From: Desulfurococcaceae archaeon
Lineage (GTDB): Archaea; Thermoproteota; Thermoprotei_A; Sulfolobales; Desulfurococcaceae
NCBI GenBank assembly: GCA_038888155.1
Contig: JAWAJB010000003.1
Location: 114,279-178,278 of the forward strand
Direction of reading: 5' to 3'
DNA length: 64,000 bases
Part shown: piece by piece, positions 33,421-48,653 of the stretch
How the letters are laid out: each line of letters begins with the position of its first letter
Numbering within the stretch: position 1 is the stretch's first letter
Program-made: the position numbers and the translations under genes
The notes under the pieces: model-generated
What the model was told of the DNA's origin: nothing
The model's database searches: none
The model's input: the letters and a program-made list of their open reading frames with translations, nothing else

Positions 33421-34089
33421 TCACGGTTTAACTGGTCTTAGGCAACCGCTCTCCAGAAAGTATTCCTCATCTACATCGAAGTGCGTGCTTAAGTCTACTG
33501 TCGTTATCAATGCTACAGCTCTTTCCTTCTCAACGAAGCTCTCTATGTAGCTGTGGACTATTTTCATTGTATCGTCGTCCAGGCTAGAGTAGGGCTCATC
33601 AGCGACGATCAGCCTCGGCCTCTTAACTAGAGCTCTCGCTACAGCGACTCTCTGCCTCTGGCCCCCAGAGAGCTGGCTGGGGTAGGAGTTTTCAAGGCCG
33701 TGTAGCCCAAGCGCCTCAACTAACATCCTAACGGCCTCATTTCTCCTCTCCTTGTTCACCCCTATGATCTTTAACGGCAGCTCAATGTTTTCATAAACTG
33801 ACAGCTCTGGGAGCAACTTACAGTCCTGATCAACGTAGCCCAGCTCCCTCAGCCTTATTGAGGCAACCATGGACTCGCCGAGCTTCCACACATCCAGTCC
33901 GCGGTAAAATACCGTTCCTATGTGTGGTTTTATCAGCATAGACGCGACTTTTGCAAGAGTTGTCTTACCAACGCCGCTTTTACCGCGAACGAGGGTAACC
34001 GTGCCTTCAACTAGCTCTAAGTCAACGCCCCTGAGAACGAACTCGCCGCTGTACCTAAGCCACACGTTGGATAACTTAAGATAGGACAT
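33421..34089 (-). CDS. ABC transporter ATP-binding protein (LolD/MacB-like)
   Basis: GKSGVGKTT, LSGGQRQRVAVARAL, ADEP; H-loop reads ITTVD rather than VTHD. Confidence 0.9.
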   Translation of the reverse strand: MSYLKLSNVWLRYSGEFVLRGVDLELVEGTVTLVRGKSGVGKTTLAKVASMLIKPHIGTVFYRGLDVWKLGESMVASIRLRELGYVDQDCKLLPELSVYENIELPLKIIGVNKERRNEAVRMLVEALGLHGLENSYPSQLSGGQRQRVAVARALVKRPRLIVADEPYSSLDDDTMKIVHSYIESFVEKERAVALITTVDLSTHFDVDEEYFLESGCLRPVKP

Positions 34090-35557
34090 GCAGATAACCT
34101 GCGTTAAATACTACGCTCCTACAGTTAGGTAAGCTAGAGGGTAGCTTTATAAAGTCCACGGGAGATATTGGCACGCCATATATGTAGTTGCCCCTAGATA
34201 GAACAGCGAGTCCGCGTTGTCTGCACAAATCTACAGCCGTTAGCGGAGATATCTCAACAACTTCAGGCACCATGTAGGCGTACTTCGGGTCGCCAGAGAT
34301 AGGAGCATCAATCGCCTTTAACTTTACGAGATCTCCGAGAACTACGTCGTACTCTCCATACCTCCAGTAGAAGGTATAGGGATCCTCGCCGAGAGTTACC
34401 GTGGCAGTGCATCCCGCTGTAATTACTGCTAACAGTGTGAACACTGCTAAACTGGACCTAGAGTTGCTCTCGCCTAGGCTAATACTCATCAATATAAGGG
34501 CGAAGACGAGGTAGTTGGCAACCCTGTGGACAATCCCAACTGCTTCAACCGCATAGGACAAAATATATAGAAATATTGTCGCAATAGGCAGTAGAACACC
34601 CGCTCTCAGTCTACCTGCGGGCAGTTCAGCAGACTTGTAGGTAGCGGAGGAAATCAAAGGAACAATGTATAGGGCAAATGGAACAACGCTGATAGGCGCT
34701 GTAACAGTGTAGAGAAGCGATATAACTGCTGGGAGCGCGGCAAAGGCCATAAGTAAACTAGAGCCCAGCCTGCCGAGGAAAAGGTAGGCTAAGTACACAG
34801 CTACTGCGTATAAGCCGAGTGAGGACAGGTCGTAGGCCGACATCCTCAGGGGTAGCTTGGTTGTTGCAGTTGAATAGATCGCAAAGGCTGAAAATAGAAG
34901 CATGCAGCATACTAGATACCTGCTGCTCAATTCTAGGGGCTTTCTGGCTCTAATCTTCCACGCGAAGTCGGCGTAGGCAGCGCTGAAGAGCACAGCCGTG
35001 CACATAGCGCTTGCAAGGGGGTGGCTTAGTACTAAAGCCGTAGAAAGTATGGATAACGCCAGCCAGCCCCTCAACTTATTCTCACGAGATGCTGCAAGGT
35101 AGAGAATTAAGGGAATTAACGTATAGCCGTAGAACTCTTTGAGGTATGCAGATGTATAAATAGCGAACGAGGGCATTGAAGATATAGCTAGTGAAGCTAG
35201 TAAGCGGGATCCGCGGATACTCGCTAACCTACCTGCAAAGGTGTAAACTAGCACAAACATTGCTGAAGAGAGCATAGCTACGCCGATAAACATGAAAAAC
35301 CACTCTATAGGCACGCCAGTGACGATGGCGTACACAACGCACTCTAGTGTTGAGAGTGGATACTCAGCGTGGTGGCCGAAAGCTTCCGCTAGAGAGTATA
35401 TGCCTAAGTTAGGGTTTTCTAGGACGCGCCTCGCTAAATGTACAAGAGGCCATACGTCGTTTGAGAAGAAAGTGCCCGTGTAAATACTCGGCAGTAGCCT
35501 AATTAAAGCAGTAAAGAGGAGAATTGCCACAATAGGAACCAATCCGCTAAACTTCAA
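34076..35557 (-). CDS. Polytopic membrane protein, GT-C-like architecture
   Basis: About 12 TM; first external loop FFSNDVW...EYPL; short soluble C-terminal domain. Confidence 0.55.
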   Translation of the reverse strand: MKFSGLVPIVAILLFTALIRLLPSIYTGTFFSNDVWPLVHLARRVLENPNLGIYSLAEAFGHHAEYPLSTLECVVYAIVTGVPIEWFFMFIGVAMLSSAMFVLVYTFAGRLASIRGSRLLASLAISSMPSFAIYTSAYLKEFYGYTLIPLILYLAASRENKLRGWLALSILSTALVLSHPLASAMCTAVLFSAAYADFAWKIRARKPLELSSRYLVCCMLLFSAFAIYSTATTKLPLRMSAYDLSSLGLYAVAVYLAYLFLGRLGSSLLMAFAALPAVISLLYTVTAPISVVPFALYIVPLISSATYKSAELPAGRLRAGVLLPIATIFLYILSYAVEAVGIVHRVANYLVFALILMSISLGESNSRSSLAVFTLLAVITAGCTATVTLGEDPYTFYWRYGEYDVVLGDLVKLKAIDAPISGDPKYAYMVPEVVEISPLTAVDLCRQRGLAVLSRGNYIYGVPISPVDFIKLPSSLPNCRSVVFNAGYLHVLS

Positions 35558-36641
35558 GGGCTCTTACCCCTCGAACGGCTCCTACTGCACATAGAGTGTA
35601 GTTGGCTACGGCTGTGTAGACAACGCTCTGGATGCCTATTTCTAAGGGTATAGAGTAGTCCAAGAAAATTAGCGGCGGCATTAAATTTAGGCTGTACACT
35701 GCCAGGGACAGCACTACAGAGATGAGTGTTAATACAGCTGTAAAAGAAAGCAGCACAAATACAAGGGCCCTCCTCGAAGCTCCTAGGGCTACAAATAGCT
35801 TCAACTCTCCGCGAAGGGCCTCCGCTATCCCTAACCCCAGTACAGGCAGGCCTAGAAGTGCTACTACAGATATTGAGTAGGCTGCGTAAATTATGTAATC
35901 CCTGTAGATCCCTAGCTTAAGGAAGTAAATCTCCGTTGGGCTTTCAGCGCCTCTTAGCTCAAAGATATCTCCTCTGCGAATTGCTACAAGGAAGGCCCTC
36001 CTAATTAGCCCCTCTAAATGTTGCTCGGCTTCAAGCCCTAAAGCCCTATAAACTTCATTTAAAGCGGTATTATCGTAGATGTACGCTACGGCAAAGCTGT
36101 AGTAACCTGGCTTAACGCCTCGAAGCCTAGCTATAGTAGAGTAGCTAACGCCGAGACCCGGTTTATCACCAATGCCGCACACTCTAAGGATTAAGACCTC
36201 ACCGGTAAAAAGTGATTGAATAGGCAGGAAGCTACCCACAGCTGGGCCAACTCTACTTAGCACGCTTGTACTTGGGTAGAGGCATGTATCGTTGGCGATA
36301 GGCGTCTCGTAAAGCACAGTTGGTTCGCCGCCTAGAAGCCCAACAGTTATGAAGATTGGCTGTATCTCTACTTTGTCAACGGCGCTTAACTTTCCCTTGA
36401 TGTACTCAAAGTTTATTAACGATGTAAAAGGAGAAATAGCATCGCTAGATATAATGATAGTAGAGGTAGCAGCGGCGTCTCGAGGGTAGAATACATCGTA
36501 CACTCTAGACAGAGAGCTTACGTAGCCAATCGCGTAGAGCGACAGCGTTGATAAAGCTGTAGAGACGAGAAGGGCGAGCACAAATAGGCTGACCTTTTTA
36601 CTGAGAAGATATATTAGGATTGCCCTAAAGCAGCTTAACAC
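35547..36641 (-). CDS. FtsX/LolE-like ABC permease
   Basis: TM-soluble domain-3 TM layout; ELKLFVALGASRR motif. Confidence 0.65.
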   Translation of the reverse strand: MLSCFRAILIYLLSKKVSLFVLALLVSTALSTLSLYAIGYVSSLSRVYDVFYPRDAAATSTIIISSDAISPFTSLINFEYIKGKLSAVDKVEIQPIFITVGLLGGEPTVLYETPIANDTCLYPSTSVLSRVGPAVGSFLPIQSLFTGEVLILRVCGIGDKPGLGVSYSTIARLRGVKPGYYSFAVAYIYDNTALNEVYRALGLEAEQHLEGLIRRAFLVAIRRGDIFELRGAESPTEIYFLKLGIYRDYIIYAAYSISVVALLGLPVLGLGIAEALRGELKLFVALGASRRALVFVLLSFTAVLTLISVVLSLAVYSLNLMPPLIFLDYSIPLEIGIQSVVYTAVANYTLCAVGAVRGVRALEV

Positions 36642-37554
36642 CTCTAACCTCCCTCAAACTTATTACAATAGACACCAAAAGTGAGATACAAAGTACTTCA
36701 ATCACCGCGAAAGCAATTGAGGTTTGTAGCAGTAGTGGTAGAGCAGGCCAATATAGGCTTATCAGCTTGTGTAGAGCGTTGAGAGCCACTGCACTTAGTG
36801 AGAGGAGGAAGACTGCTATCAATGAAGATACAGTGAAGGAAGCAACAGTGAATCCTAGGGCAAGCTTTCCTCTACTGACGCCTAGATTAATCAAGGCAGT
36901 AAATTCCTCGCTGAGTATTCGCTGAACTCTCATTACAGCTAAGTAGGCCATTGGAATGTAGGCGAGGAATAAAGTGTTTAGCCAAGCCGTAGATGTCTCC
37001 CTAAGGCTTTCCTCTACGTATGCCAAAGCTCGCTTAAAAACGTCAGCCTGAGTTGCACTACAGAGCTTGACTCTACTTTCAACAGACATAAAGCCTACCT
37101 GTATAACGGCGTAAATGCCCTCGTGAACGTGTGAAACGCACTTCTCTACGTCCCCAATAACAACGTACTCGCCGCGGTGCTTTTCGTACACATCAGCTGG
37201 AATAGATATGAAATCGCAGTTTTCAGCAACTGCCTTAAAATCGACAAGGCCACTTCGTAGAAAATCCTCAGGGGTTGCAACTAGGGGCAGCTCAACGCTA
37301 CCTATACGGGCAATGCCTGCTATTTGCAAATCAAAGCAGCTATCGCGCCCATTAAAAACAACTAGCTTTATGCACTCCACGCTGCTTTGTTGCGGAACTG
37401 TATCTACAAATACAGTTAGGCTTGGGACAGAGAGCAGAACTGCCGACAGCAATAAGGGGGGCGCAAAAGCGGCAATTAAGACTTTATATGCGCCTTTCCT
37501 AAAGATAGATAGAAGAATTGCAGAGATAATCCCTCTCAATTTCACACTCAGCAA
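36625..37554 (-). CDS. FtsX/LolE-like ABC permease
   Basis: Same layout; EFTALINLGVSR motif. Confidence 0.6.
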   Translation of the reverse strand: MLSVKLRGIISAILLSIFRKGAYKVLIAAFAPPLLLSAVLLSVPSLTVFVDTVPQQSSVECIKLVVFNGRDSCFDLQIAGIARIGSVELPLVATPEDFLRSGLVDFKAVAENCDFISIPADVYEKHRGEYVVIGDVEKCVSHVHEGIYAVIQVGFMSVESRVKLCSATQADVFKRALAYVEESLRETSTAWLNTLFLAYIPMAYLAVMRVQRILSEEFTALINLGVSRGKLALGFTVASFTVSSLIAVFLLSLSAVALNALHKLISLYWPALPLLLQTSIAFAVIEVLCISLLVSIVISLREVRGVKLL

Positions 37555-37583
37555 ACCCCCACAGTAAACATGTTAGGCAAAAG

Positions 37584-38501
37584 CTACGCGCTAGATCTAT
37601 TAATTAGCTCTTTTATTAAACGCCTTATCCTCAGCTCCATTCGCTTGAGATACATTGATAGAATCGCCAGCATGAACGCCTGAAGTCCCGCTATAGTTAA
37701 GAACACAGCCACTAAGCCCTTAACGTAGTAGTTTATCCCAGTAAAAAAGTAGTGGTAGGCTACATATCCCCCTATTATGAGCCCGGGAATAACTATTGTG
37801 CTGGCACACATTAGCAACATCGTGACCGGGCTATACCTCCACGCTAGCCTTACGATATCTATTGCTATCTGAAGCCCACTAAAAGCGGTAAGCTTCTTTC
37901 TACCAAGCCTTTTCCTGTACTCAATTCCGTACTCGTAGTAAGGTATTCCCTCCCCTACTACGTGGGCAACTAACTCTACCTCAATGCTAAAGTTCTTTGT
38001 CTCGAACAGCATGTCCCTGAACTCATCAATGTTGAGCAGGTACATGCCAGTACAAACGTCATATAAGTTGCCGCCAATTAAGACGTTGAATAAGTTGGTT
38101 AGAAGCCAATTACCAAGCCTATTCAAAATAGGTATGTTCTCCCTTCCGTACACCCTCTTGCCTGAAACGAATGAGATGCCCCTCTCTTTAGCTTCTTTAA
38201 GCAAAGTAGGTATGAACTTAGCTGGGTAAGTGTAGTCGCCGTCCATAACCAGTACGTACTTTGTTGAAACACGCCTCAGCCCGGTTCTAATAGCATCGCT
38301 TTTGCCGTTGCCCTCTTGCTCAACCAGCACTACCCCTCTGCTCTTCACAATCTCAGCTGTCCCATCAGTGCTGTGCCCATCAACAACGATAACCCTCTCC
38401 CTAGGAACACCTACCGATAAAACCTCATCTAAAACCCTCCCAATTGCCTCCTCTTCGTTTTTTACAGGAATAAGCACTGTAATGTCTTCTAGGTAACTCA
38501 T
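37584..38501 (-). CDS. GT2 polyprenol-phosphate glycosyltransferase (DPM1/GtrB-like) with 2 C-terminal TM
   Basis: IPVKNEE, VDGHSTDGT, MDGDYTYP, YRKRLG.KKL. Confidence 0.9.
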   Translation of the reverse strand: MSYLEDITVLIPVKNEEEAIGRVLDEVLSVGVPRERVIVVDGHSTDGTAEIVKSRGVVLVEQEGNGKSDAIRTGLRRVSTKYVLVMDGDYTYPAKFIPTLLKEAKERGISFVSGKRVYGRENIPILNRLGNWLLTNLFNVLIGGNLYDVCTGMYLLNIDEFRDMLFETKNFSIEVELVAHVVGEGIPYYEYGIEYRKRLGRKKLTAFSGLQIAIDIVRLAWRYSPVTMLLMCASTIVIPGLIIGGYVAYHYFFTGINYYVKGLVAVFLTIAGLQAFMLAILSMYLKRMELRIRRLIKELINRSSA

Positions 38502-38711
38502 TTCAGCCCCTCTGACATTAATTTAGTAGCTCGCAGAATTAAAAAATCTATTTACATCCATGCAGGGGAGCGTTGAAAAGGCCGTCCTACACTTGCTGAG
38601 CGAGCGCATTGGCGCTTATAACAATTAGGTCTCTATAAGCAATTAATAGAGACTTTAAGTACACGAAGTCCAAGTTTGAAGTCTTCACCCTGTGTTCATT
38701 GGTGTTGTCAA

Positions 38712-40352
38712 TTGGCATCCAGAGTGGACTACGAGAAAGGCATAGTTGCAGGGTATTTGGCAATTATATCTATTGTAGCTTTAATGGCCCAAGGTACTTA
38801 CAGAGAGTACATTGAGTCCGCCCTCAGGCTTATGTTCTCTGAAGACTACAGCTACTTGCTAGTTGTACTTACACTAGTTATTTACGCTATTTACTCCTAT
38901 ATAAAGCGCGCAGGCTTTACAAGTGAAATACAGCTTAGTAGACTGCTTGTATCTCTTCTCTTAGCTGTAAGCTCTATTGCACTGTACTACGCCTCTAAGT
39001 TAACAGTAGAGCTCTCTCTACACGTGCTTGGATTAAGCTTCGCCGCTGCAGTTGTATCTGTATTGATTATACTATTCAAACCAGCAAATATTGGAGAAGC
39101 CACTTTATTTTTAACCCCCCTTCTCACTGCGCCCATTCCAGCTAATGTCGTAGACGCAATTACGATAGGGCTCTCTAAATTTCTAGGCGCGCTAGTAGCT
39201 ACCTCTACAGGCGCTAGACTTATAAGCACTGACGATCTCTCCCTAATTGAGGTCGAGACAAGCCAGGGCGCTATCACAGTTAGCGTTGAGGCAACATGTA
39301 GCGGAATCCCGTTGCTTAGCGCAGTAGTGGCGACTATTGCGATATTACCGCACTACCTTGCTTCAACCCGCGAGAACGCGCTCAAGAAGCTTAGGACATC
39401 GCTAGTAGCCCTGTTGATTAGCCTCTCTATAGGACTCGTTGGAAGCTATGCGAGGGGGGCGCTCATTGTATTAGTTGCGAGATGTTGCGGTGTAGACGCT
39501 GCAATTGCCTCCCTCTGCTACATGCCCTCAGCAATTTACGCGGCACTCTCAGCTTCTCTAGCCTATGCCTTGATCAAAAGATCAGCTGGAGTGAACTCAG
39601 CGCAGGCAAGTACAAGCAGAAAATTCTTGAATTTCGAGTACATGACCTTGACGGTAGCAATAGCAGTAGCAGTTATGATGCTAATACAGGGCTTGACTTT
39701 TATAGGGGCAGGCAACAGCTACATGCGTAGTAGTATTGCAGTTGGAGCAAATGCCTTTAGTGAAGTGCTAAAAAACCCAATCGCGCATTTTTTTAGCAAC
39801 AAGGCAGAAGTTATAGACTCAGCGCACGATGTCCTTCTAACTAGGGCCATGGGGGCTATATCCCTTTACAGAGTGAGCGCTACAGTTAACAGCACGCAGT
39901 ATCTTGGATTTGTAGAGTTAGTGGATACTCCTGCAAGATTGCACACACTGCAGCTGTGTTTAAGGCTTCAGGGCTTCAGCGTGATAACATCTTGGGGAGA
40001 GCTTTACAAGTCCCTTCAACTGGGGTACATTATCGTGGAGAAAGAAAACACCAAGTACATTCTACTATATACCTTGCTTCCCGTTGAATTTCAAGCCCCA
40101 GGAGAAAGCCAGGCGCTCTACGCAAGGATTTCAATATTCAAGCCGTACAGAGGCGTTCAAGACTTAGAGTCTGTTAGAGCAGACTTACTGGAAGCGATAA
40201 GCATTAAAATCAGCCATGAGGCTGTAAGCCCGTGGAGCAACACTATAGGCGCCTTCAGCTTATCTATTGTAGCTTTATTTATTTCGCTTGTACTGTATTC
40301 TCTCATGGTTTACGCATACAGGTATATTCACCTAAAGGGGGCTAGACCTTGA
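38712..40352 (+). CDS. Exosortase/archaeosortase family protein fused to an EpsI-like domain
   Basis: Multi-TM N half with VSVEATCSG and YARG motifs; soluble domain with LHTLQLCLRLQGF (EpsI H....C...QG); C-terminal TM. Likely TTG 38712 after GGTG (track start 38676). Confidence 0.78.
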   Translation: MASRVDYEKGIVAGYLAIISIVALMAQGTYREYIESALRLMFSEDYSYLLVVLTLVIYAIYSYIKRAGFTSEIQLSRLLVSLLLAVSSIALYYASKLTVELSLHVLGLSFAAAVVSVLIILFKPANIGEATLFLTPLLTAPIPANVVDAITIGLSKFLGALVATSTGARLISTDDLSLIEVETSQGAITVSVEATCSGIPLLSAVVATIAILPHYLASTRENALKKLRTSLVALLISLSIGLVGSYARGALIVLVARCCGVDAAIASLCYMPSAIYAALSASLAYALIKRSAGVNSAQASTSRKFLNFEYMTLTVAIAVAVMMLIQGLTFIGAGNSYMRSSIAVGANAFSEVLKNPIAHFFSNKAEVIDSAHDVLLTRAMGAISLYRVSATVNSTQYLGFVELVDTPARLHTLQLCLRLQGFSVITSWGELYKSLQLGYIIVEKENTKYILLYTLLPVEFQAPGESQALYARISIFKPYRGVQDLESVRADLLEAISIKISHEAVSPWSNTIGAFSLSIVALFISLVLYSLMVYAYRYIHLKGARP

Positions 40353-41299
40353 GCGCGTTTGACTTCGACAAGATAAGGGAAACGCTTAGAGAAGTTGTCA
40401 GCGCTATTTCAAAAGTACACGTTGGCAAACAGGATATAGTAAAGTACGCAGTCGCAACCCTCCTTGCGGGTGGACATCTACTAATTGAGGGCTACCCTGG
40501 AACTGGGAAAACACTGTTAGCTAAGGCGCTCGCCAAAGCAATAAGCGGTGAGTATCGGAGGGTGCAAGGCCACCCAGATATACTACCCAGCGACATTATT
40601 GGTTTCCATATGTATAGGCCTGGCGGCGAAAGGATATTTATAAAAGGACCAATATTTACTAACATACTGCTTTTCGACGAGTTGAACAGGACTCCAACGA
40701 GAACTCAGGCTTCACTGCTAGAGGCCTTGCAGGAATACCAAGTAACAGTGGATGGGATATCATACCCAATCTCGAGGCCGTTCATGCTTATTGCCACCCA
40801 AGTCGCAGAGAAGCACGCTGTAGGCTCGTATAAAGTTATGGAGACCTTGGCCGATAGGTTTACACTGAAGCTCTCCAGCTACTACAACCCTCCCGAAGAG
40901 GAAGCTGAAATAGTCGCCAAGGCCGATGCAATCTCATCTCTCCCAATAGAGCCCGTGATAAGTCTTGAGGACCTCAAAGCCATTTATGAATCTCTGCCAA
41001 GTGTCGTTGAGGTAAGCCCCCATGTAATCGATTATATTGTCAGACTAGTAAACTATGTTAGGTCGCACCCCTCAGTTGCCTACGGGCCATCGCATCGCGC
41101 CACAATAGATATTGCAAGGCTCTCAAGGCCGCTAGCCCTTCTCGATGGGCGAGATTACGTAATACCGGATGACGTGAAGTCTATCTTTGTAGGCACAGTT
41201 GCACATAGAGTAAAGTTAAAAGAGGAGCACGAGCTTGAGGGGTTAACCGCAGAACCAATTATGCTGGAGGCACTGAATAATGTCCCAACTCCAAAGTAG
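40349..41299 (+). CDS. MoxR family AAA+ ATPase
   Basis: EGYPGTGKT, PDILPSDIIG, DELNR..RTQASLLEALQE, DRF, GRDYVIPDDVK. Confidence 0.95.
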   Translation: MSAFDFDKIRETLREVVSAISKVHVGKQDIVKYAVATLLAGGHLLIEGYPGTGKTLLAKALAKAISGEYRRVQGHPDILPSDIIGFHMYRPGGERIFIKGPIFTNILLFDELNRTPTRTQASLLEALQEYQVTVDGISYPISRPFMLIATQVAEKHAVGSYKVMETLADRFTLKLSSYYNPPEEEAEIVAKADAISSLPIEPVISLEDLKAIYESLPSVVEVSPHVIDYIVRLVNYVRSHPSVAYGPSHRATIDIARLSRPLALLDGRDYVIPDDVKSIFVGTVAHRVKLKEEHELEGLTAEPIMLEALNNVPTPK

Positions 41300-42005
41300 C
41301 GTAAGCAAATACTTCCAACCGCTAAAGCTGTATGCGCCAGCATACTCTGCTCTGCTTTTATATTCAGCTTTGATCTCGGTATTCTACTTCTATAAAGCCC
41401 AACTTATTCCACAATACCTCGCTATAGCGGTTTTATTTGCCCTACTCAACGCAGTGATGGCGCTTAGGAAGTTAATAGCACACTATATCCCAGTAACCCT
41501 CTACACCCTAACCGCGCTTGTCTACATGCTGTCCTCTCAAATGCTTGGAGGATTAGAGGGACTGCTTGAGGACGCAGTTGATGCGCTTCTCATCATAACG
41601 TTATTATTCACTTACGCCTACTGCAATTATCCAAGAGACCTGCAAGGAGCAATTCGACTGTACATTCCATTTATAGTGCTAGTTTCAACAATCATAGGCA
41701 TTTACTTAGGCGTTGAGCGCCCCCTCCGGTTCTCGCTTCTAACGCTTATTGACTTGCTTGCATCTATTGCTGTATCTTTAGATAGCAGAGCCCCCCTTAG
41801 GTACGCATCCCCCCTGCTTTTCTTCTTTTTGCTCTACACCTCACCAATTGTAAATGTTAAGGCAGCCTCCCTAATTCTGTTCTCGCTACTTCACCTAACT
41901 AGAAACAAGTTGATATTAAGCAACAGTCATAAACACATTAATTATGCAAACGCCGTTCTCAGCCTAGACTTATTGATTAAACCTATAGCGGTGTCACTGA
42001 TATGA
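41280..42005 (+). CDS. Integral membrane protein
   Basis: Hydrophobic 241 aa, overlaps both neighbours. Confidence 0.65.
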   Translation: MSQLQSSVSKYFQPLKLYAPAYSALLLYSALISVFYFYKAQLIPQYLAIAVLFALLNAVMALRKLIAHYIPVTLYTLTALVYMLSSQMLGGLEGLLEDAVDALLIITLLFTYAYCNYPRDLQGAIRLYIPFIVLVSTIIGIYLGVERPLRFSLLTLIDLLASIAVSLDSRAPLRYASPLLFFFLLYTSPIVNVKAASLILFSLLHLTRNKLILSNSHKHINYANAVLSLDLLIKPIAVSLI

Positions 42006-42691
42006 ACACGCGCCTCTTCATTGTAGGCGTAGATGTAGTTATCATCTCAGCGCTACTAGCCCTCTACGGGTTAGCAGCAGGCGATCAGGGCCTTGTGGGA
42101 ATAGGCACATCGATAGGTGTAGCAGGGAGCGTACTAGTTGCTTATAGCACCACTCCTAAGGAGCCTGTGCTCGGGGCAGTCCTCAGCTACACATCTATGC
42201 TAGCACACGCTGTTACAGCAGTAGCGGAAGACCTGGACCTCTTGAACAGCCGAGTATGCGCACACAATACGCCTTCCCTTGCTCTGATTTCATTCTCAAA
42301 ATCTAAGTGCCCCAATAACCCTAACCCGGGTATAGGCCTCGCCGAAGGGTCCCCGTACATCTCAATTCCTGTCAGCGTGTTCCAAGAGGTAGGGGAACTA
42401 GAAGAGAGGAATGCACAAAACTTCGAGGAATCTCTCAACTCGCTACTAGTTGACGAACTTGGCGTGTGCAGTGCTGTTAGAGTTGAGCAGAGAGGAGATC
42501 TATTCATTGTTGACTTACTTGGTATATCGAAGCTACTAGCTGAGTACAGTAAGTATCCAGTAGACCCCGCTGCCCTCCTCTTGCTAGCTATTACTGCAAA
42601 GATAATGGGTGAATGTAGAGTACACCTAGTTGAAAAAGAGTCAGCGCCAACGCATGAAAGGTTTGTAATAAGGGTGGAGGAAATTGCCTAG
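42002..42691 (+). CDS. Membrane-anchored hypothetical protein (2 N-terminal TM plus soluble domain)
   Basis: ATGA overlap with the upstream stop; TM hairpin then alpha/beta domain. Confidence 0.7.
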   Translation: MNTRLFIVGVDVVIISALLALYGLAAGDQGLVGIGTSIGVAGSVLVAYSTTPKEPVLGAVLSYTSMLAHAVTAVAEDLDLLNSRVCAHNTPSLALISFSKSKCPNNPNPGIGLAEGSPYISIPVSVFQEVGELEERNAQNFEESLNSLLVDELGVCSAVRVEQRGDLFIVDLLGISKLLAEYSKYPVDPAALLLLAITAKIMGECRVHLVEKESAPTHERFVIRVEEIA

Positions 42692-42935
42692 AAGACAAGA
42701 GCTCTTGCCGTTTATCTACGTCCTGCTAGTAACTTCAATGAATATCTCTCTTTATACACTAGGTGAAAAGAGAGTTGACGCATACCTTGCATTAAATGTG
42801 CTGTTGTACTTTATTTCCTACGCAGTAGTTAGGCCATTTTATGCTGCGCCTCTCTTAGTTAAGGCGTTAAACGCTTCACTTTTGCTCGTATTTGCACTCA
42901 TAGTGGCTTTCAGAGTTTACGAGGTGCTGTTCTAG
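42684..42935 (+). CDS. Small membrane protein (3 TM)
   Basis: 83 aa hydrophobic, RBS GGAGG, overlaps neighbours. Confidence 0.7.
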   Translation: MPRRQELLPFIYVLLVTSMNISLYTLGEKRVDAYLALNVLLYFISYAVVRPFYAAPLLVKALNASLLLVFALIVAFRVYEVLF

Positions 42936-44680
42936 TGAAGAGAAGGTTTTACATGCTTGTAGCGTTGCTCATGCTGGCAGCCTACCAAGTGCAAGCTCCT
43001 GCACTTAGCTCTTCAAGCAACACTGACTGCCTCTACCTACTTGAACTTATGGATATAGTGTTAGATTACGCAATTAAGGGAGACACTAATGGTGAGTTAA
43101 TGTCTCATTACCTCCTAGAATCTGCAGTACCTACTGAACTTAGGAGCCTACACGTTAATGCATACAGAGCAGTCCTCAACTACTACAGCATTTTGCGCGG
43201 AGTTGAAGGGAGCTTAAGCACTTCACTGCCGCGCCTTGCTCAAGTGAACCTAGAGCACATTGAGAGTTACGCTAATAGGCTTGCTGGGTGCAGCCGCGAT
43301 AGAGAGGGGGCAAGAGCCATTCTCGCCTCTATAAACTCGAAGATCCGCAGGCTGGAAGAATTCGCGTTTCAAATAACTAAATTCCACTATGTAAATCAAA
43401 CAGGTGAAGGCTACTACATACTTCAGCTCAAAGACTTGTACCTCCCCTATGAGGCAGTTGAGCTCGTTGTCTCCAAGGAACTTCAGCCCGGTTCGGTTGA
43501 GGTGTACACTTATCCAGACCACGTTAAAATATCTGACTTTAAGCCCGCTGAAATTAATGAAACGCACTGCAAATTTACAGTAGATCTCCCCTCGGCATTT
43601 ACTATTGAGATGTTGCACTCAACAATTGCACAAGAGGTCCCTCTCGCCCTTTACTTGAGGCTAGTGAACGGCTCGTATAGACCTGTCGCGCTACTAAAAG
43701 TCCAGTACGGATTGCCGAACATCCAGCTGGACTTCCCTAGGGCAATCAAGTACAGCGAACCGCTAAATATCACTTTAGTTTCAGACAGGCTCTACAACGC
43801 AACTCTGTACTTCAACAACTTTAAGTTTGCCGCTATGCTGCTTAGGCCAGGCATGACGCACATCTCGCTAGATTACTCTTCACTAAACTATACCTTTGGG
43901 TTGAACAGAGTCAAGCTATGTGTAAATGCTACGCGAGAAACGCTATCGAGGTGTTTCGATAGACCAGTCTACATAGAGCCCCTATATCCGCGCGTAAAAG
44001 TAGTTGCTGAAAACGTGTCTATTGCTTGGCTAGGCTATGCAGCTCTGCTAATTAGGAACGAGGACGCAGGTGATGTGCGCGTAACTGTGATCGACTTAAG
44101 CCCAAAAACTTTATTCTTAGCTGGTGGCGAGATGCAAGAGGTAGAGATATACAGCGGCTTTTTGCCTATACAGGTAGTAAATCTTAGAGTTGTAGTTGAG
44201 CCGACTAATGAGGTATACAGCACTTTAGAACAAAGCTTGAGCGTAATCGCTATTAATGTCCCGGCTTTAATTCTCCTCACTGTAGCATCCGTTTTAGTTG
44301 TGCCCTCAGTAGCGGGGCATGAAAGGAGCTTTACCCTAGCATTTACTTCAGCCTTGGGGAAGGCACAGAGGGCTTCTCCCAGCACGAAAGCGCCATTAAA
44401 GAGCGGTATTTTAAAGCCGCACGAGCTGGGCCTAAATTCGCGGATAGCAGAGCTCTACTACACTCTACTAAGAAAGCTAAAGCTAAGGCTGCCCCTTTTG
44501 AGCGAAACCCTTAGGGAACACTACACAGCTACACTAGGGCTTACACCTGAAAAACTTAGAGAGAAGCTGTGGAGACTTCTACTGCTCGTAGAGAGAGACC
44601 TCTACTCAAGCAAAAAACCCGCGTATAAAGAAGCTGAAGGGCTATACAGTGGTGTCCTAGATGCTACTACCGAGAATTAA
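42935..44680 (+). CDS. Exported single-pass protein with beta-rich ectodomain and DUF4129-like cytoplasmic tail
   Basis: Signal peptide, many NxS/T sequons, late TM, SETLREH...ERDLYS motif. Confidence 0.65.
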   Translation: MKRRFYMLVALLMLAAYQVQAPALSSSSNTDCLYLLELMDIVLDYAIKGDTNGELMSHYLLESAVPTELRSLHVNAYRAVLNYYSILRGVEGSLSTSLPRLAQVNLEHIESYANRLAGCSRDREGARAILASINSKIRRLEEFAFQITKFHYVNQTGEGYYILQLKDLYLPYEAVELVVSKELQPGSVEVYTYPDHVKISDFKPAEINETHCKFTVDLPSAFTIEMLHSTIAQEVPLALYLRLVNGSYRPVALLKVQYGLPNIQLDFPRAIKYSEPLNITLVSDRLYNATLYFNNFKFAAMLLRPGMTHISLDYSSLNYTFGLNRVKLCVNATRETLSRCFDRPVYIEPLYPRVKVVAENVSIAWLGYAALLIRNEDAGDVRVTVIDLSPKTLFLAGGEMQEVEIYSGFLPIQVVNLRVVVEPTNEVYSTLEQSLSVIAINVPALILLTVASVLVVPSVAGHERSFTLAFTSALGKAQRASPSTKAPLKSGILKPHELGLNSRIAELYYTLLRKLKLRLPLLSETLREHYTATLGLTPEKLREKLWRLLLLVERDLYSSKKPAYKEAEGLYSGVLDATTEN

Positions 44681-45503
44681 GGCCTATACGCTATTTATTG
44701 CGCTCGGAGCTCTAGTTGGGCTGTTTACACTAATCTCTCTGCCGTCAACTGTGCCCTACAGCGTGGCTAATCGGGGACCCAGCGGGCTTTATACTCTACG
44801 TACATTGTTGAATGCTGAAGTACTGTACTCACTAGACGGACTGGAAAGCTTCAGCAGCAAGAGCACGCTGTTGATCTCAGCTCGCTCTAAGCCTATTGGC
44901 GAGGCTCAAAAACTGCTCAACTTCGTAATGGAGGGGGGAACGGCCCTGATTTACGGATCACCAGAAAACGTTATTAACTTGCTCAGGGAGATGGGCATAT
45001 ACACGAGCTTCAGGGGATACGTTCGGGACATAGTATTCAACGTTGAAGGCAACTTAAACACTGTCGTAGCATATAATACTAGGTACACGAGGGTTGTTTT
45101 TAAAAATCCCTATACGCTCGGCGTGGATTTCAGCGAAGAGGGTATAGCTGCGTGGAGCAGCGTATTTTCACACGTCGATATAAATGGAAACGGCGCGTAC
45201 GATCTAGGTGAGCCGATAGGCATGTTTCCACTTGGTTTAGAGATTGCCTATGGTTCCGGTAAAATAGTGGCCTTGTTTACTGAGCAGCTACTGGAAAATG
45301 ATGTCTTAGATTATAACCTAGAGCTTATTACCGCAGAATGTGAAAACAAGAGAGCATTAATAGATCAGTCTGAGGTAGCGCTCTACCCAATGGAGGCTCT
45401 AAGGGCTTACTTTGTGCACAGTATGCCCCCCGCTAATGCACATTTAGTTTTAGTCCTAGTAGCAATACTCTCTACGGTTGCGTACTATGCAACTAAGAGA
45501 TGA
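44661..45503 (+). CDS. DUF4350-like protein
   Basis: N-terminal TM, YSVANRGPSGLY, FVMEGGTALI, YGSGKIVAL, C-terminal TM. Confidence 0.7.
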   Translation: MLLPRIKAYTLFIALGALVGLFTLISLPSTVPYSVANRGPSGLYTLRTLLNAEVLYSLDGLESFSSKSTLLISARSKPIGEAQKLLNFVMEGGTALIYGSPENVINLLREMGIYTSFRGYVRDIVFNVEGNLNTVVAYNTRYTRVVFKNPYTLGVDFSEEGIAAWSSVFSHVDINGNGAYDLGEPIGMFPLGLEIAYGSGKIVALFTEQLLENDVLDYNLELITAECENKRALIDQSEVALYPMEALRAYFVHSMPPANAHLVLVLVAILSTVAYYATKR

Positions 45504-47109
45504 AGCTCTAAAGTATGGAGCCCTAGTTGTGGAAGTTGCTGGTTGTTTAGCTGCTTATACCCTCGCTGGCTACCCTACTCTAGTTCTGTTGCCCTTTCCA
45601 GCTCTACTACTAGTGGGAAACCCGCACATATGGCTTATATCCTCGCTATCCTATTGTTTTCTACTTTCAACGCTTTTAGATCAACCGGTATTGAACCTAC
45701 TTGCAGTGCTATTAGCATCTGCGGCTACAGCGCGCTTCATTATTTACTCAGGCGTTCAGGACCCCTCAAAACCCGTATATACGCTTCTGCTCTTCTTTGC
45801 ACCTTTGTACGTAGTTTCCCCCAGGACTTTAATAGTAGTTTTAGCCTCAGCGATATCACTATTTTCAGCTGTGGCCGTTGAGTACTACAGGCTCAGCAAG
45901 TCAAGTGTAAAACTGCCGTTAATCAACCCAACTGCTTACTTAAATGACTACTTCAGCTTTGCGCTAGAGATTAAATGCCCGGGCCAGTTCAGGTATCGCA
46001 TTGAGCTAGACGACAAGCTATATGCAGAAAAAGCAGCTCTAAACAACGCTCTCGATAGCGTTAAGATAAGGGCCTCTAGGCTCGGCCTAAATAAACACAC
46101 CATTAGAGCAGTAGTGCAGGACCCGCGGCAGCTAGCTAGAGTTGAACACGGGCCTTACACAATTGAGTACACAGTTGTACCCCGCTTTGCAGAGCTGTAC
46201 AAACGCGCGCAGAGGGTTTTAAGGGAGTACTCAAGCTATATTGCGCTTCCGCTTATAGCAAGGCTAATAATTCAGGTGGCCCCTACATCAACCGAGGGAG
46301 CTGAGGCTAGAGGATCAAAAGGCGCTGAACCTCTAGAGAGAGACCTCCTAGAGCCTTCCTCTCAAGTTACGAGGGGCGTAGAGTCGAGATATAGGCGCCA
46401 CTTCGAAGTCAGAATTGAGTTCAAGACCCCGCAGAGGCTCTTGGAGAGAGCGTCGCAAATAGCGGCAAGCGTCGTTGGAGAGTACTTGGGAGTTAGAGAG
46501 TATACTCCTGGGGACTCTTTGAGGCTAATTCACTGGAAAAAGAGCGCTCGCAGAAGCGATACATTGGATCTAGCCGTTAAAGTCTACAGCGCAAGCGACG
46601 TAGATAAGTACGCAGCTTCGCCTAGGAGCATTTTAGTAGCTGACCTTACAGCTACAAATGCAGCAGAGCTAGACCTGTTGCTTCAAACGCTCTACAGCTA
46701 CATTCTCTCGAGCGTAGAGACGTCAGCAAAAACGCCCTATGAGTTCTACTTATACCTCGTAACGCCTAAGGGCGAGACATACTTAATGAGGGGAAAGCCT
46801 GTTGATGTCCTGTTGGGGCTCAACGCTCTTGTGGTCGAGGGAGATATAGTAGCGCTGTACAGTTACAGCAGCTGGCCTAGGTTTAATCCTCCTGTTGACC
46901 AAGCTCCTGAGGGAGGAGCTCTAAAAGACCTTGTAGACTACTATGAGGCTTATGGAGCAGCCCTAGTAAAAGATCTAAAGTCTCACGGCGTTGAGGGTGT
47001 TGCAGTAGCGTTTGTGTACCCAAAAGCGCTCAGCTTTAAGTACGGCGTTGTTGCAAGCGTATTTACGAGAAGTGGATATTATGTTGCATCGCCGGGCGCC
47101 AGTCGATAG
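45478..47109 (+). CDS. DUF58 domain protein with N-terminal TMs (MoxR partner)
   Basis: GEYLGVREYTPGDSLRLIHWKKSAR; degenerate MIDAS-like ADLTAT. Confidence 0.88.
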   Translation: MRTMQLRDEALKYGALVVEVAGCLAAYTLAGYPTLVLLPFPALLLVGNPHIWLISSLSYCFLLSTLLDQPVLNLLAVLLASAATARFIIYSGVQDPSKPVYTLLLFFAPLYVVSPRTLIVVLASAISLFSAVAVEYYRLSKSSVKLPLINPTAYLNDYFSFALEIKCPGQFRYRIELDDKLYAEKAALNNALDSVKIRASRLGLNKHTIRAVVQDPRQLARVEHGPYTIEYTVVPRFAELYKRAQRVLREYSSYIALPLIARLIIQVAPTSTEGAEARGSKGAEPLERDLLEPSSQVTRGVESRYRRHFEVRIEFKTPQRLLERASQIAASVVGEYLGVREYTPGDSLRLIHWKKSARRSDTLDLAVKVYSASDVDKYAASPRSILVADLTATNAAELDLLLQTLYSYILSSVETSAKTPYEFYLYLVTPKGETYLMRGKPVDVLLGLNALVVEGDIVALYSYSSWPRFNPPVDQAPEGGALKDLVDYYEAYGAALVKDLKSHGVEGVAVAFVYPKALSFKYGVVASVFTRSGYYVASPGASR

Positions 47110-47157
47110 TAGCCTAAATAAATCTCCGCACAATTCAAGTAAATGTGAGGTAGCTGG

Positions 47158-47583
47158 GTGATTAGATTGCTTAAATCCGCAGCGCTTGCTCTTGTGTTAT
47201 TTGCAGCTGTAATAACAGCGCTTGTGCCGATAGGTTCTAGCCAAGTGGACTTCGCTACAGAAATAGAGCTTGCTGTTAGAGAGCTGGAGTACCTCTACAG
47301 CAGGGGAGTGGATGTAGAACAGCCTATAGAGTTACTAAACAAGGCAATAAGCGAATACAGCAGCGGGAGGCTTGAGAGCGCATATATGCATCTCCAAGAG
47401 GCTAAAAGGCTCATAAGCGACCTTAAGCTAGAGGAGGGATCTGTATACGCTTTGGCCATGGCTACAAAAGCAGCAACTGTACTTGCCCTCGCCTCAATTC
47501 CAATAGCTCTCTACATTGGGTTGCCAAGGCTATACCTATACCTTTGGTATAAGCTTCACAGAAAGTGGATTGTTAGGTGGTAG
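47158..47583 (+). CDS. Membrane-anchored helical protein
   Basis: Signal/TM, helical bundle, C-terminal TM and basic tail. Confidence 0.7.
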   Translation: MIRLLKSAALALVLFAAVITALVPIGSSQVDFATEIELAVRELEYLYSRGVDVEQPIELLNKAISEYSSGRLESAYMHLQEAKRLISDLKLEEGSVYALAMATKAATVLALASIPIALYIGLPRLYLYLWYKLHRKWIVRW

Positions 47584-48083
47584 AGTTGATCATAGATGAA
47601 GAAGTTTTCGCTGTATTAATTGCAATATCAGTCGTTGGGTCAGTTATTGGAATAGCAACAGTGCTTAGGCCAGAGACCGTTGAGCCCTTTACGGCGATTG
47701 GTTTACTGAGCGCCAGCTGTCAAATAGGCGACTACCCCACTAAGGCTTTTAATAATTCAGCTTTAAGCCTGTGCATCTTCGTGTTGAACCACATGGGCAA
47801 ACCTGTCCTATACAGAGTTGTATACAAAGTAGGGGATCTAGAGACGCTTCCAACAAATGCGACTCCCTCCCCCGCGAGAGAGGCTATGGCGTGGATAGGG
47901 GTTTTAGGCAACAAGCAAAACGCGACGACCTCCATAGAAGTGCCAGTATATGCAAATGGACCGCTACCCACTAAAGTAGCGTTGATCTTCGAGCTCTGGC
48001 TCTACGATACTGAGTTGAATCGCTGGGTTTACACGGGCAGGTGGGTACACTTGTACGTAGATGTCAGTCCGCAGATAGCATGA
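47577..48083 (+). CDS. DUF1616-like (TM plus soluble C-terminal half)
   Basis: EPFTAIGLL...GDYP, VLNHMG, FELW...HLYVDV. Confidence 0.7.
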   Translation: MVELIIDEEVFAVLIAISVVGSVIGIATVLRPETVEPFTAIGLLSASCQIGDYPTKAFNNSALSLCIFVLNHMGKPVLYRVVYKVGDLETLPTNATPSPAREAMAWIGVLGNKQNATTSIEVPVYANGPLPTKVALIFELWLYDTELNRWVYTGRWVHLYVDVSPQIA

Positions 48084-48095
48084 GGTTAGAAAAAC

Positions 48096-48653
48096 ATGGA
48101 GAGGAGACGCACTACCTTAGAGGAATACGTCAACGGGCAGCTCAAGAGAAAAGGGAACAAGTACGCAGCTCTTCAAGAGGCATGGAAGGGCGCCCAAGAA
48201 GGGAAGCTGAAGCTTGAGGATCCAAACCCCCCATTAACGCTGATATCCTACGCATTTAGGCTGGACTACACCTTGTGGTTTTGGACTGCAGCTATACTCT
48301 CAACATTAACGCTTGTCCTGATTTACTTAGCTGATTACTTGCCTCTGCTCACTCCAGCTAGGTATGTACTTGGCACAATCTACGTATTGTTCATACCCGG
48401 TTACTCCCTAGTGGAGGCGCTCTACCCGCGAAAAGAAGACCTCACCCCCCTTGAGAGAGTCGCCCTCTCTATTGGCTTATCGCTCGCAGTAATTCCCCTT
48501 GTAGGGTTGCTGCTAAACTACACTCCATGGGGAATTAGGCTAGCGCCAATAATTACCTCAACTGCACTGTTCATAGCAACAATGCTCGTTATATCGCTTT
48601 ATAGAAAGTTCAGCTACATTAAGTTGAACATTAACAGAAGTCCGAGGAGTTGA
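48096..48653 (+). CDS. DUF1616 membrane domain protein
   Basis: LFIPGYSLVEALYP..L..LERVALSIGLSLA..PLVGLLLNYTPWGIRL. Confidence 0.85.
   Translation: MERRRTTLEEYVNGQLKRKGNKYAALQEAWKGAQEGKLKLEDPNPPLTLISYAFRLDYTLWFWTAAILSTLTLVLIYLADYLPLLTPARYVLGTIYVLFIPGYSLVEALYPRKEDLTPLERVALSIGLSLAVIPLVGLLLNYTPWGIRLAPIITSTALFIATMLVISLYRKFSYIKLNINRSPRS

Follow-up and report, generated by a model that had tools for sequence, protein, structure and literature searches.

A Desulfurococcaceae locus that probably encodes a lineage-specific, enlarged form of the arCOG01314/arCOG02884 membrane complex

Comparative genomics led Makarova, Galperin, and Koonin in 2015 to propose a "predicted secretion or membrane-remodelling complex" (PMC5898192), here called the arCOG01314/arCOG02884 system, and Table 2 of their paper lists among its parts a DUF4350/GldG-like anchored protein, a MoxR protein, a DUF58/vWA protein, pfam07760 membrane proteins, an Ig-like "S-layer" protein, and small transmembrane (TM) proteins. 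In the D. mucosus row of supplementary Table 3 the operon reads arCOG00434-11910-11497-03665-01314-02744-11424-02884-02887, and its products are MoxR followed by proteins of 232, 84, 577, 280 (arCOG01314), 535 (DUF58), 140, 162 (arCOG02884), and 178 (arCOG02887) amino acids (aa). The relevant part of a 2019 review (PMC6393860) places arCOG02884 (HVO_2173) among the most widespread uncharacterised archaeal genes, as "dark matter", and a passage in another paper, one that names DUF1616, describes HVO_2173 as an AglB-dependent N-glycoprotein. We compare with this system a 16-gene locus at positions 33421-48653 of the window, i.e. the whole stretch of 64,000 nucleotides that was analysed from the genome of a Desulfurococcaceae archaeon (GCA_038888155.1, contig JAWAJB010000003.1, positions 114,279 to 178,278). 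It is probable, if far from secure, that this locus encodes a lineage-specific, enlarged arCOG01314/arCOG02884 membrane complex with a mechanism, inferred below, that acts on surface proteins.

A conserved core and its published counterpart

The 16 open reading frames (ORFs) of the locus lie in two divergent arms, five on the minus strand (33421-38501; A1 to A5) and eleven on the plus strand (38676/38712-48653; B1 to B11), and adjacent genes either overlap by 1-26 nt or are separated by gaps of 12-48 nt (Table 1). The ORF listing and the model for signal recognition particle (SRP) RNA bear out everything that an earlier note on this DNA had said of the layout, namely the 16 ORFs, their overlaps, the divergent arrangement, and the adjoining SRP RNA gene. 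Because all 16 genes are syntenic in a second locus (L002) at 38-75% identity, the arrangement cannot be put down to chance.

Nine of the right-arm genes, the MoxR gene B2 together with B4, B5, B6, B7, B8, B9, and the pair B10/B11, form a conserved core. Their order and sizes are those of the D. mucosus operon, the two being mapped on each other by order and size rather than by alignment, and the published parts are all present (MoxR, DUF58, DUF4350, pfam07760, an Ig-like protein, and small TM proteins, here B5 and B3). The right-arm core is the arCOG01314/arCOG02884 system. The earlier note knew of no characterised system with this combination of genes, a statement that does not stand for the core, which had already been predicted in 2015 (PMC5898192). 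The locus differs from the published system in that its operon includes a sortase fused to an EpsI-like domain and has links to a LolCDE-like ATP-binding cassette (ABC) module, a GT-C-like protein, and a GT2. What is new beyond the 2015 prediction is the operon sortase in one clade and the recurrence of the left-arm genes beside the core in distant archaea. Neither exosortase, sortase, nor FtsX occurs in the main text of PMC5898192, the neighbourhood tables of which span five genes on each side, and the first two of the six rows containing "exosortase" in its supplementary file 3 are on other sheets. Nor did we find a link between a sortase and this complex described in the literature searched, as judged by titles and abstracts, most subscription journals lying outside that literature.

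As a measure of core conservation, we used hidden Markov models (HMMs) of the cassette families to scan the loci around the best 80 of at least 576 relatives of B11 in the genome contig collection (40-70% identity), these 80 coming from Desulfurococcales, Ignisphaera, metagenome-assembled genomes (MAGs) of Sulfolobales, Bathyarchaeia, Nitrososphaeria, Methanomethylicia, and Odin- and Baldrarchaeota. Counts were taken from the 49 loci that span at least 10 kb; since many of these are kin the counts are not independent, which weakens them as support: B10 is found in 41, B8 and B5 in 35 each, MoxR in 34, B7 in 33, B9 in 28, B6 in 22, and B4 in 21, and, outside the core, an A5-type GT2 in 21, A1 in 20, A2 in 16, the sortase in 11, A3 in 10, and A4 in 2. 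The B11-type protein with the DUF1616 N-domain (L036-L115) is itself unusually conserved, at 40-55% identity from Desulfurococcales to Odin- and Baldrarchaeota, and contains the invariant block LNYTPWGIR.

The MoxR, DUF4350, and DUF58 proteins named in the earlier note are B2, B7, and B8, respectively. For B2 and B7 the family matches suffice, whereas B8, for which the HMM score is below threshold, is recognised by the conserved block GEYxGVREYxPGDSxRxIHWKKS, in which 14 columns are invariant, including every named letter of REYxPGD..IHWKKS except E; a DUF58 match at E 0.01 or better is obtained for 4 of 9 B8 orthologues. In one genome (G170; L026:2525-4891, G170:C9) B7 and B8 are fused in a single open frame of 795 aa, a Rosetta-stone hint that the two proteins may act together. 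The sequon-rich exported protein of the earlier note is B6, which has eight N-x-S/T sequons, none of them outside the ectodomain (a density of 13.8 per 1000 aa versus a background of 4.0). In the AlphaFold2 (AF2) model of B6 (pLDDT 79.5) the cytoplasmic tail is helical, and Foldseek places the S-layer protein SbsC first (2.4e-11), followed by strings of FN3/Ig domains. Although the tail motif ETLREH...E.DLYS..KP is invariant, PF13559 (DUF4129) has no match in B6 and six orthologues. A 617-aa paralogue of B6 on another contig of the same bin (C27), however, matches PF13559 with 29.2 bits against a cut-off of 24.8, and its alignment with the B6 family extends over the TM segment and the tail (hhalign 94.8%, E 5e-8). 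If the B6 tail is counted as DUF4129-like through this paralogue, the core has the same four domains as the DUF4129-DUF4350-MoxR-DUF58 modules of bacteria and archaea, with their MoxR-vWA pair, but it differs from them in that the B6 tail itself falls below the PF13559 model and in that the four domains are here embedded with DUF1616, B9, B4, and B5.

The two DUF1616 "parts" of the earlier note do both match DUF1616, but each is a conserved gene in its own right (arCOG02884 and arCOG02887), and they are not halves of a broken one; all eight B10 orthologues compared give a DUF1616 match, four of them above the cut-off. In B9 the TM and juxtamembrane motif SIP...Y...PR.Y.Y.W[FY]K.RRKW is far better conserved than the ectodomain, whether a sortase is present or not, and is probably a contact inside the complex. 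By hhalign no relationship between B4 and B10 is seen (probability 0.7%); arCOG11910 is listed under pfam07760 in the table of Makarova et al. B3 has no family match in Pfam or NCBIfam.

An exosortase-family gene in the core operon

For EpsH, the relevant section of Haft 2006 (PMC1569441) gives three invariant motifs, Cys-x-Gly, Asn-x-x-Arg, and His-x-x-x-Gly, and for ArtA conserved residues that resemble those of sortases are stated to be required (PMC6098224, in part). A 2018 review of archaeal cell-surface biogenesis, in the passage concerned, assigns archaeosortases to "a subset of Euryarchaeota" and describes Sulfolobales as being without one. In one Desulfurococcaceae/Ignisphaera clade, nevertheless, B1, often together with B3, has been taken into the core operon. 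The frame of B1 is open from a TTG at 38676 and its homologues start at 38712. Orthologues match with 30-45% identity over 76-98% of the query, four full-length ones (P0002, P0004-P0006) with 33-42% identity over 89-97%. Five of six matches (P0002-P0006, P0003 being a 437-aa partial) carry a precomputed PF09721 assignment, and to two of the matches NCBI gives the name "archaeosortase/exosortase family protein". When 1.84 billion representatives were searched with a profile, 160 relatives came out, of which 78 reached E 1e-30 or better; most are 530-570 aa long and match end to end. Of 81 aligned members of the B1 family, 62 match PF09721 (E <=0.001) and 63 match TIGR04178 (E <=0.01), and the best specific models are EpsH (39), XrtA (38), XrtV (34), XrtD (29), ArtE (2), and ArtC (2). 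By these model matches, the B1 family is a subfamily outside the named Xrt/Art groups, with bacterial-type models as its best specific ones.

The family consensus at the three motifs is CSGI, GNxxR, and FHxxPS. The B1 family is thus like the exosortase/archaeosortase family (EpsH/XrtA; ArtA of Haloferax) in being polytopic, in matching PF09721 and TIGR04178, and in having the CSG cysteine and the conserved Arg, and it is like many bacterial exosortases in having an EpsI-like domain fused at the C-terminus. Nine hydrophobic segments precede the C-domain of B1, and the AF2 model (pLDDT 91.2) consists of a membrane domain of helices, an ectodomain rich in beta structure (residues ~340-480), and a final TM segment. 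Against the PDB, Foldseek returned nothing for this model at E 0.001 or better, there being weak DcrB/PsbP-like rows at E 0.01-0.1. Residues 349-500 have an Atlas TM-score of 0.55 to PF11984/EpsI clusters that include an exosortase-EpsI fusion of XrtD type (features score 0.84), a likeness that the tool rates as a lead. Searching genomes with PF11984 gave no match in 21 relatives and none in 14 control genomes either, and was hence uninformative.

The sortase-anchored set combined six matches in the genome contig collection with twenty regions from 401 sampled genomes of the phylum, 33 of which matched. Flanks can be used in twelve loci of the close subfamily, and the number of independent cases is smaller, because L002 is nearly identical to L003 and L007 to L009. 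The sortase is in or beside the core in ten of these twelve loci (L002, L003, L004, L007, L008, L009, L010, L012, L013, and L026), and it is among housekeeping genes in L011 and L014, which belong to one genus. It occupies different places relative to the core, B1-B2(-B3...), B8-B1-B9 (in Ignisphaera, Staphylothermus, and others), and B9-B1-B2, and GT2-B1-B2 is also seen. Among the B11-anchored loci, 15 of all 80 contain the sortase, and these are exclusively Thermoprotei-type records plus one Geothermarchaeota and one unclassified record.

When the 401 genomes were searched with the B8 profile (E 1e-40 or better, full length or, in G120 and G191, fragments), 14 had a match, 11 of which also hold the sortase, the others being G003, G134, and G120. 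Moreover, every one of the 11 genomes with an intact cassette-clade sortase also holds a full-length B8-type DUF58 gene, so that the earlier note was right in expecting the sortase and MoxR modules to co-occur. A twelfth genome (G126) has a sortase remnant and no B8-type gene. The remnant (L027, C1:1003793-1004260) consists of the C-terminal domain with an in-frame TGA, beside a short B11-like fragment, and suggests that the module has decayed in one genus. In a quick maximum-likelihood tree with midpoint rooting only, all 26 cassette-type sortases fall in one group (SH-aLRT 100), apart from nine sortases of 680-770 aa from other Thermoproteota families, and two stand-alone sortase genes nest inside the B1-B2 clade (96). 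The 680-770-aa exosortase-family proteins (L016-L025; PF09721 1e-26 to 1e-41) are a separate clade found in polysaccharide loci, the ten loci containing a GT2 in 8 cases, a Wzx-type flippase in 4, sugar-nucleotide enzymes in 4, and a DUF1616 gene in 3, and also Big_1 surface proteins.

Left-arm genes as neighbours of the core

Across archaeal classes, the core repeatedly has as its neighbours the LolCDE-like genes A1, A3, and A4, the GT-C-like gene A2, and the GT2 gene A5. Chance neighbours inflate the counts of A1 and A5, whose families are very common, a reservation that tells against using them as evidence of linkage, whereas A2, A3, and A4 are family-specific; one or more of these three is found in 18 of the 49 B11-anchored loci, at 0-4.8 kb from a core gene. 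A1 and A2 stand beside B10/B11 in 8 of 11 Bathyarchaeia loci. The left arm is complete, with all five genes, in L002, and A4 is syntenic in L002, L003, L007, and L009. In G149 and G277 the cassette is on one strand in the order A2-A1-B9-MoxR-B4...B8-B10-B11, and an A5-like GT2 adjoins the sortase in G170 and is divergent from MoxR in G134.

The ABC ATPase that the earlier note had recognised is A1, the best NCBIfam rows of which are the LolD, FtsE, bacteriocin-export, DevA, and MacB types, all below the equivalog cut-offs. Of the two FtsX-like permeases that it had proposed, A3 is supported by its family profile (12 sequences), for which solved LolC/LolE chains, in register, are the top five rows (5.9e-5 to 5e-4), the match of A3 itself to Pfam FtsX being below the cut-off (E 0.006). 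The case for A4 is weaker, and consists of a cytoplasmic loop motif in common with A3 (BLASTP E 0.003) and the same topology; A4 has no match to a Pfam or NCBIfam model. The left arm resembles LolCDE/MacB/FtsEX in that A1 is closest to LolD/FtsE, in that the A3 profile matches LolC/LolE, and in that A3 and A4, each with a first TM segment, a large ectodomain, and three further TM segments, are side-by-side paralogues like LolC and LolE, but the likeness in sequence is weak and all matches are below curated cut-offs. To our knowledge, Archaea have no outer membrane and no Lol pathway.

Known pairs of a polyprenol-phosphate sugar synthase with a GT-C enzyme include AglJ/AglD with AglS, GtrB with the Gtr GT-C, and ArnC with ArnT. 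The proximity of A5, which is closest to the models for AglJ and for dolichyl-phosphate hexose transferases, to the GT-C-like A2 recalls these pairs, with the differences that A5 is below the AglJ equivalog cut-off, that A2 has no HMM or PDB-sequence match, and that no flippase was identified. The GT2 of the earlier note is A5, which scores 87.3 bits with PF00535 (cut-off 23.3), 1.5e-34 with NF041391, and 6.5e-52 with the AglJ equivalog TIGR04182 (176.7 bits, below the cut-off of 325); by its best matches it would be a GT2 of the Dol-P-hexose type. A2, which that note had called GT-C-like, has no match in Pfam, NCBIfam, or the PDB sequences, and its family profile finds nothing below E 0.07 among the PDB sequences. 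The structure neighbours, however, keep the proposal alive as a lead: the Atlas model superposes at a TM-score of 0.68-0.80 on archaeal clusters, one of them named oligosaccharyltransferase, and on clusters in which 11-32% of the members carry STT3/PMT_2. In addition, D33, K139, E140, H178, and R344 are invariant in 17 homologues, D33 being the Asp of the first-loop motif FS[NT]DVW.

The bin that contains the locus (G000; the locus is on contig C3) comprises 2.42 Mb in 134 contigs, with a completeness of 97.4% and a contamination of 6.4%. Its contig C27 (L034:1-13257) carries a second, diverged cassette with A2-, A3-, and A1-like genes, B8, MoxR, B7, a DUF4129 protein (617 aa), B5, B11, B10, and B9, and its contig C8 (L035:10888-12306) carries a lone B9-B10-B11 triad; the bin holds one sortase only. 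Because genomes of the same genus have 1.3-1.5 Mb, as compared with the size and contamination of this bin, the C27 and C8 copies may belong to a second organism.

The nearest relatives of the locus are in Desulfurococcaceae MAGs, and the window DNA is found in hot-spring metagenome runs. In a run of an RNA library, contigs with a depth of 2-5 are identical to pieces of A3/A4, A4/A5, B2, and B7, and a B4 piece differs in one letter and has two left out, most bins of the locus having no contig cover; these low-depth contigs are a weak hint that the locus is expressed, with DNA carry-over as a possible source. Nowhere else in the window is the RNA run nearly as deep as over the SRP RNA piece (contig depth 188, identical). 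The upstream flank consists of unrelated genes of housekeeping type (eRF1, a nucleotidyltransferase, and an M50 site-2 protease), the M50 protease, which has a PDZ domain (31990-33063, plus strand), directly adjoining the SRP RNA gene. Downstream there are a peptidase with the beta-lactamase fold and an EamA transporter, both unrelated to the locus; the peptidase is of the Pab87 type with an octamerisation domain (48936-50300, minus strand; PF00144 7.9e-63, PF13969 7.2e-16) and is convergent with the end of the locus.

Table 1. Features of the locus, with positions in the window.
Feature	Coordinates	Strand	Description	Evidence
SRP RNA	33082-33351	-	archaeal SRP RNA gene	132 bits
A1	33421-34089	-	ABC ATPase, LolD/FtsE/MacB type	PF00005 8e-28; LolD 6e-43, FtsE 1.2e-42
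A2	34076-35557	-	493-aa polytopic membrane protein (~9 or more TM), GT-C-like lead	Atlas structure neighbours
A3	35547-36641	-	LolC/LolE-like (FtsX-type) permease	TM1, ~220-aa ectodomain, 3 TM
A4	36625-37554	-	second FtsX-like permease (weak)	topology like A3; loop motif common with A3
A5	37584-38501	-	GT2 with two C-terminal TM segments, polyprenol-phosphate hexosyltransferase-like (AglJ/DPM1-like)	PF00535 1.4e-24
Intergenic spacer	38502-38711 (38502-38675/38711, 175-210 nt)		divergent, A/T-rich, TATA-like stretches facing both arms	read directly; candidate promoters
B1	38712-40352 (open from 38676)	+	exosortase-family membrane domain (~9 TM), EpsI-like ectodomain, final TM; divergent copy	orthologues, AF2 model
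B2	40349-41299	+	MoxR AAA+ ATPase	AAA_3 1.3e-40, AAA_lid_2 2.1e-16
B3	41280-42005	+	5-TM membrane protein	occurs where sortase directly upstream of MoxR, also in G149/G277
B4	42002-42691	+	membrane protein, 2 N-terminal TM + soluble domain	kept in 21/49 B11-anchored loci; no family match
B5	42684-42935	+	83-aa protein, 2-3 TM	kept in 35/49 loci
B6	42935-44680	+	predicted exported glycoprotein: signal peptide, helical domain, ~3 Ig-like domains, TM, cytoplasmic DUF4129-like tail	AF2, Foldseek
B7	44661-45503	+	DUF4350 (GldG-like) ectodomain protein, N- and C-terminal TM	PF14258 4.2e-8, 34.1 bits (cut-off 30.4)
B8	45478-47109	+	polytopic N-terminus + DUF58 (vWA-like) domain	PF01882 3.8e-4, 20.1 bits (cut-off 23.4)
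B9	47158-47583	+	141-aa bitopic protein: signal, helical ectodomain, C-terminal TM + basic tail	alignments; adjoins B10-B11 in 28/49 loci
B10	47577-48083	+	DUF1616 C-part, one TM + beta-rich ectodomain; arCOG02884 by position	PF07760 153-236, 6.8e-7, 29.2 bits (cut-off 31.6)
B11	48096-48653	+	DUF1616 N-part, cytoplasmic head + 4 TM; arCOG02887 by position	PF07760 5-118, 1.3e-30, 107 bits

A possible mechanism and the competing explanations

In the mechanism that we propose, the cytoplasmic MoxR protein would act through the DUF58 (vWA-like) domain, and perhaps through DUF4129-like cytoplasmic domains, and would thereby assemble or remodel a set of membrane-anchored ectodomains at the cell surface, namely B6, B7, and B10 with B11 and B9. 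A5 would load a hexose on dolichyl phosphate, A2 would transfer this hexose outside the membrane onto the core ectodomains or onto other surface proteins, and the LolCDE-like ABC module would spend ATP on mechanical work upon a membrane-anchored component. The sortase, where present and active, would cut the C-terminal anchor of a surface protein, and this step is the weakest because no sorting signal was found, the candidate tails are equally conserved where there is no sortase, the enzyme of the window has lost two of the three motif residues, and its branch is long. Extended to its fullest form, the proposal describes a machine that assembles and anchors surface proteins, in which MoxR, DUF58, and DUF4129 provide the drive, GT2 and GT-C decorate the Ig ectodomains, the ABC module extracts or hands over anchored proteins, and, in Desulfurococcaceae and Ignisphaera, the exosortase cuts the anchor for transfer to a lipid or a glycan. 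We offer this fullest form as a speculation that is unlikely to hold as a whole, and any lipid anchoring by the system is inferred. The earlier note had argued for one integrated system, and part of this survives in that there is a coherent envelope system with linked sortase and MoxR modules and recurrently linked arms, but the sortase is an accessory and both the novelty and the function were overstated.

Several findings count against the reading of the locus as an enlarged complex with a working sortase. Complete cassettes (MoxR-B4-B5-B6-B7-B8-B9-B10-B11) with no detected sortase are present in G003 and G134, and in G149 and G277 the sortase lies among housekeeping genes ~300 kb from the cassette; because the core thus exists without the sortase or far from it, the sortase is accessory and dispensable for the core. 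A screen of the raw ORFs of G000 for a signal, a C-terminal TM segment, and a basic tail yielded 74 candidates, and among the 35 with at most one mid-TM segment, the tails of which were read by eye in what is a crude procedure with no CTERM HMMs, no shared tripartite C-terminal sorting signal was found, nor was a sorting-signal family of the PEP/PGF type such as accompanies exosortases and archaeosortases. B9 seemed a candidate for a dedicated substrate, in that its C-terminal TM segment and basic tail are its most conserved part and that it moves with the sortase in some arrangements, but its tag ASIPxxxYxxxPRxYxYxWFKxRRKW is equally conserved in the sortase-less G003 and G134, and in G000 an HMM of the tag finds nothing but the two B9 paralogues of C8 and C27. 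We likewise rejected as signals the B7 C-terminus and the invariant Asn that precedes the TM segment of B6, since both are the same in sortase-less genomes. It is possible, if doubtful, that the sortase is instead a general processing enzyme for surface proteins, with the genes of its substrates at other sites, and that it stands in the operon owing to co-regulation with envelope genes or to gene-order drift and does not act on the core complex, as the distant location in G149 and G277, the occurrence of its distant relatives in polysaccharide loci (GT2 in 8/10, a Wzx-like flippase in 4/10), and the want of a sortase-specific tag on any cassette protein might suggest. A general enzyme, however, accords poorly with a sortase that stays beside the core through three arrangements in 10 of the 12 informative loci, and with the presence of the core in all 11 genomes that have an intact cassette-clade sortase, G126 having a remnant only and no core; moreover, the 35 tails read among the 74 candidates of G000 have no common C-terminal motif. 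The window protein itself is a further difficulty. It has no Pfam match even at E 10 and no NCBIfam match even at 0.1, as against 62-63 of its 81 relatives, so that the earlier note's reading of ORF 38712 as an exosortase-EpsI fusion holds at the level of the family, while the refuting outcome which that note had named, a failure of this ORF to match exosortase models, is, taken to the letter, what is observed for this copy. In the second motif Arg248 is kept (76/81) and Asn is replaced by Ser245 (Asn 65/81, Ser 9/81), and in the third motif His is replaced by Cys269 (His 64/81, Cys 2/81, these two being the window protein and P0001), which changes two of the three motifs given as invariant in the cited section of Haft 2006. 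The changes are not an assembly error, because P0001, which is 95% identical and comes from another assembly, has the same Cys269 and Ser245. The branch of B1 is, in addition, ~2.4 times longer than those of its sisters in the quick tree, and the EpsI models PF11984 and TIGR02914 match 0 of the 81 family members, the EpsI assignment of the ectodomain being a lead from predicted-structure likeness only. That catalysis by this sortase is impaired, the protein persisting as a pseudo-enzyme or scaffold because of its EpsI-like ectodomain or a binding role, is still rather unlikely in our view, given that Cys196 of C196-S-G198 (family Cys 71/81, Gly 80/81) and Arg248 are retained, that the frame is full-length and intact, that the AF2 model has a pLDDT of 91, and that the His column holds another residue in 17 of the 81 members, so that His may be non-essential here.

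The linkage of the two arms and the task of the core are open to other explanations as well. The left arm might be an ordinary ABC exporter with N-glycosylation helpers, an independent neighbour unconnected with the MoxR complex; genes for ABC ATPases and GT2 enzymes are frequent everywhere, and in L004, L005, L008, L010, and L012 no left arm lies within 10 kb of the cassette. We consider this very unlikely, since the genes A2, A3, and A4, which have no Pfam family of their own, recur near the core in the B11-anchored loci counted above, the Bathyarchaeia included, since they form one same-strand run with the core in G149 and G277, and since the second, diverged cassette on C27 has them too. 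The expectation of the earlier note that both arms would co-occur in other genomes is borne out in part: some left-arm genes recur next to the core in different arrangements and also in further classes, but not in those five loci. The assignment of A2 to GT-C, however, derives from predicted-structure likeness only and is a lead, not a membership. Similarly, the functions of the core genes are predictions in the two sources concerned (Makarova 2015 and, in its relevant part, the 2019 review PMC6393860), and the title of section 3.2 of PMC5898192 names both secretion and membrane remodelling. The core complex might accordingly remodel the membrane or form vesicles and have no part in the secretion or assembly of surface proteins, as the membrane-remodelling contexts of MoxR-vWA pairs would allow. 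On the other hand, ectodomain or membrane proteins with Ig-like folds make up most of the components, there is a likeness of B6 to the S-layer protein SbsC, and the recurrent partners are glycosylation and LolCDE-like genes, so that we regard remodelling alone as unlikely and prefer to read the locus as an enlarged complex that acts on surface proteins.

The useful new lead is the set of recurrent partners of the core, i.e. the sortase, the LolCDE-like module, and the glycosylation genes. A sortase-family protease/transpeptidase, a mechanotransducing ABC module of the LolCDE kind, and a lipid-linked glycosylation pair are enzyme kinds with known chemistry, and their recurrence beside the core leads to testable hypotheses on what the complex handles, namely membrane-anchored, glycosylated surface proteins. 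The locus also documents a clade of the exosortase family in Thermoproteota, whereas the cited passage of the 2018 review has archaeosortases in Euryarchaeota only and none in Sulfolobales. If the complex were indeed a machine that assembles and anchors surface proteins, it would provide a sortase pathway for Thermoproteota, where reviews report none, and would open a first way to the function of a gene set that is among the most widespread uncharacterised ones in archaea.

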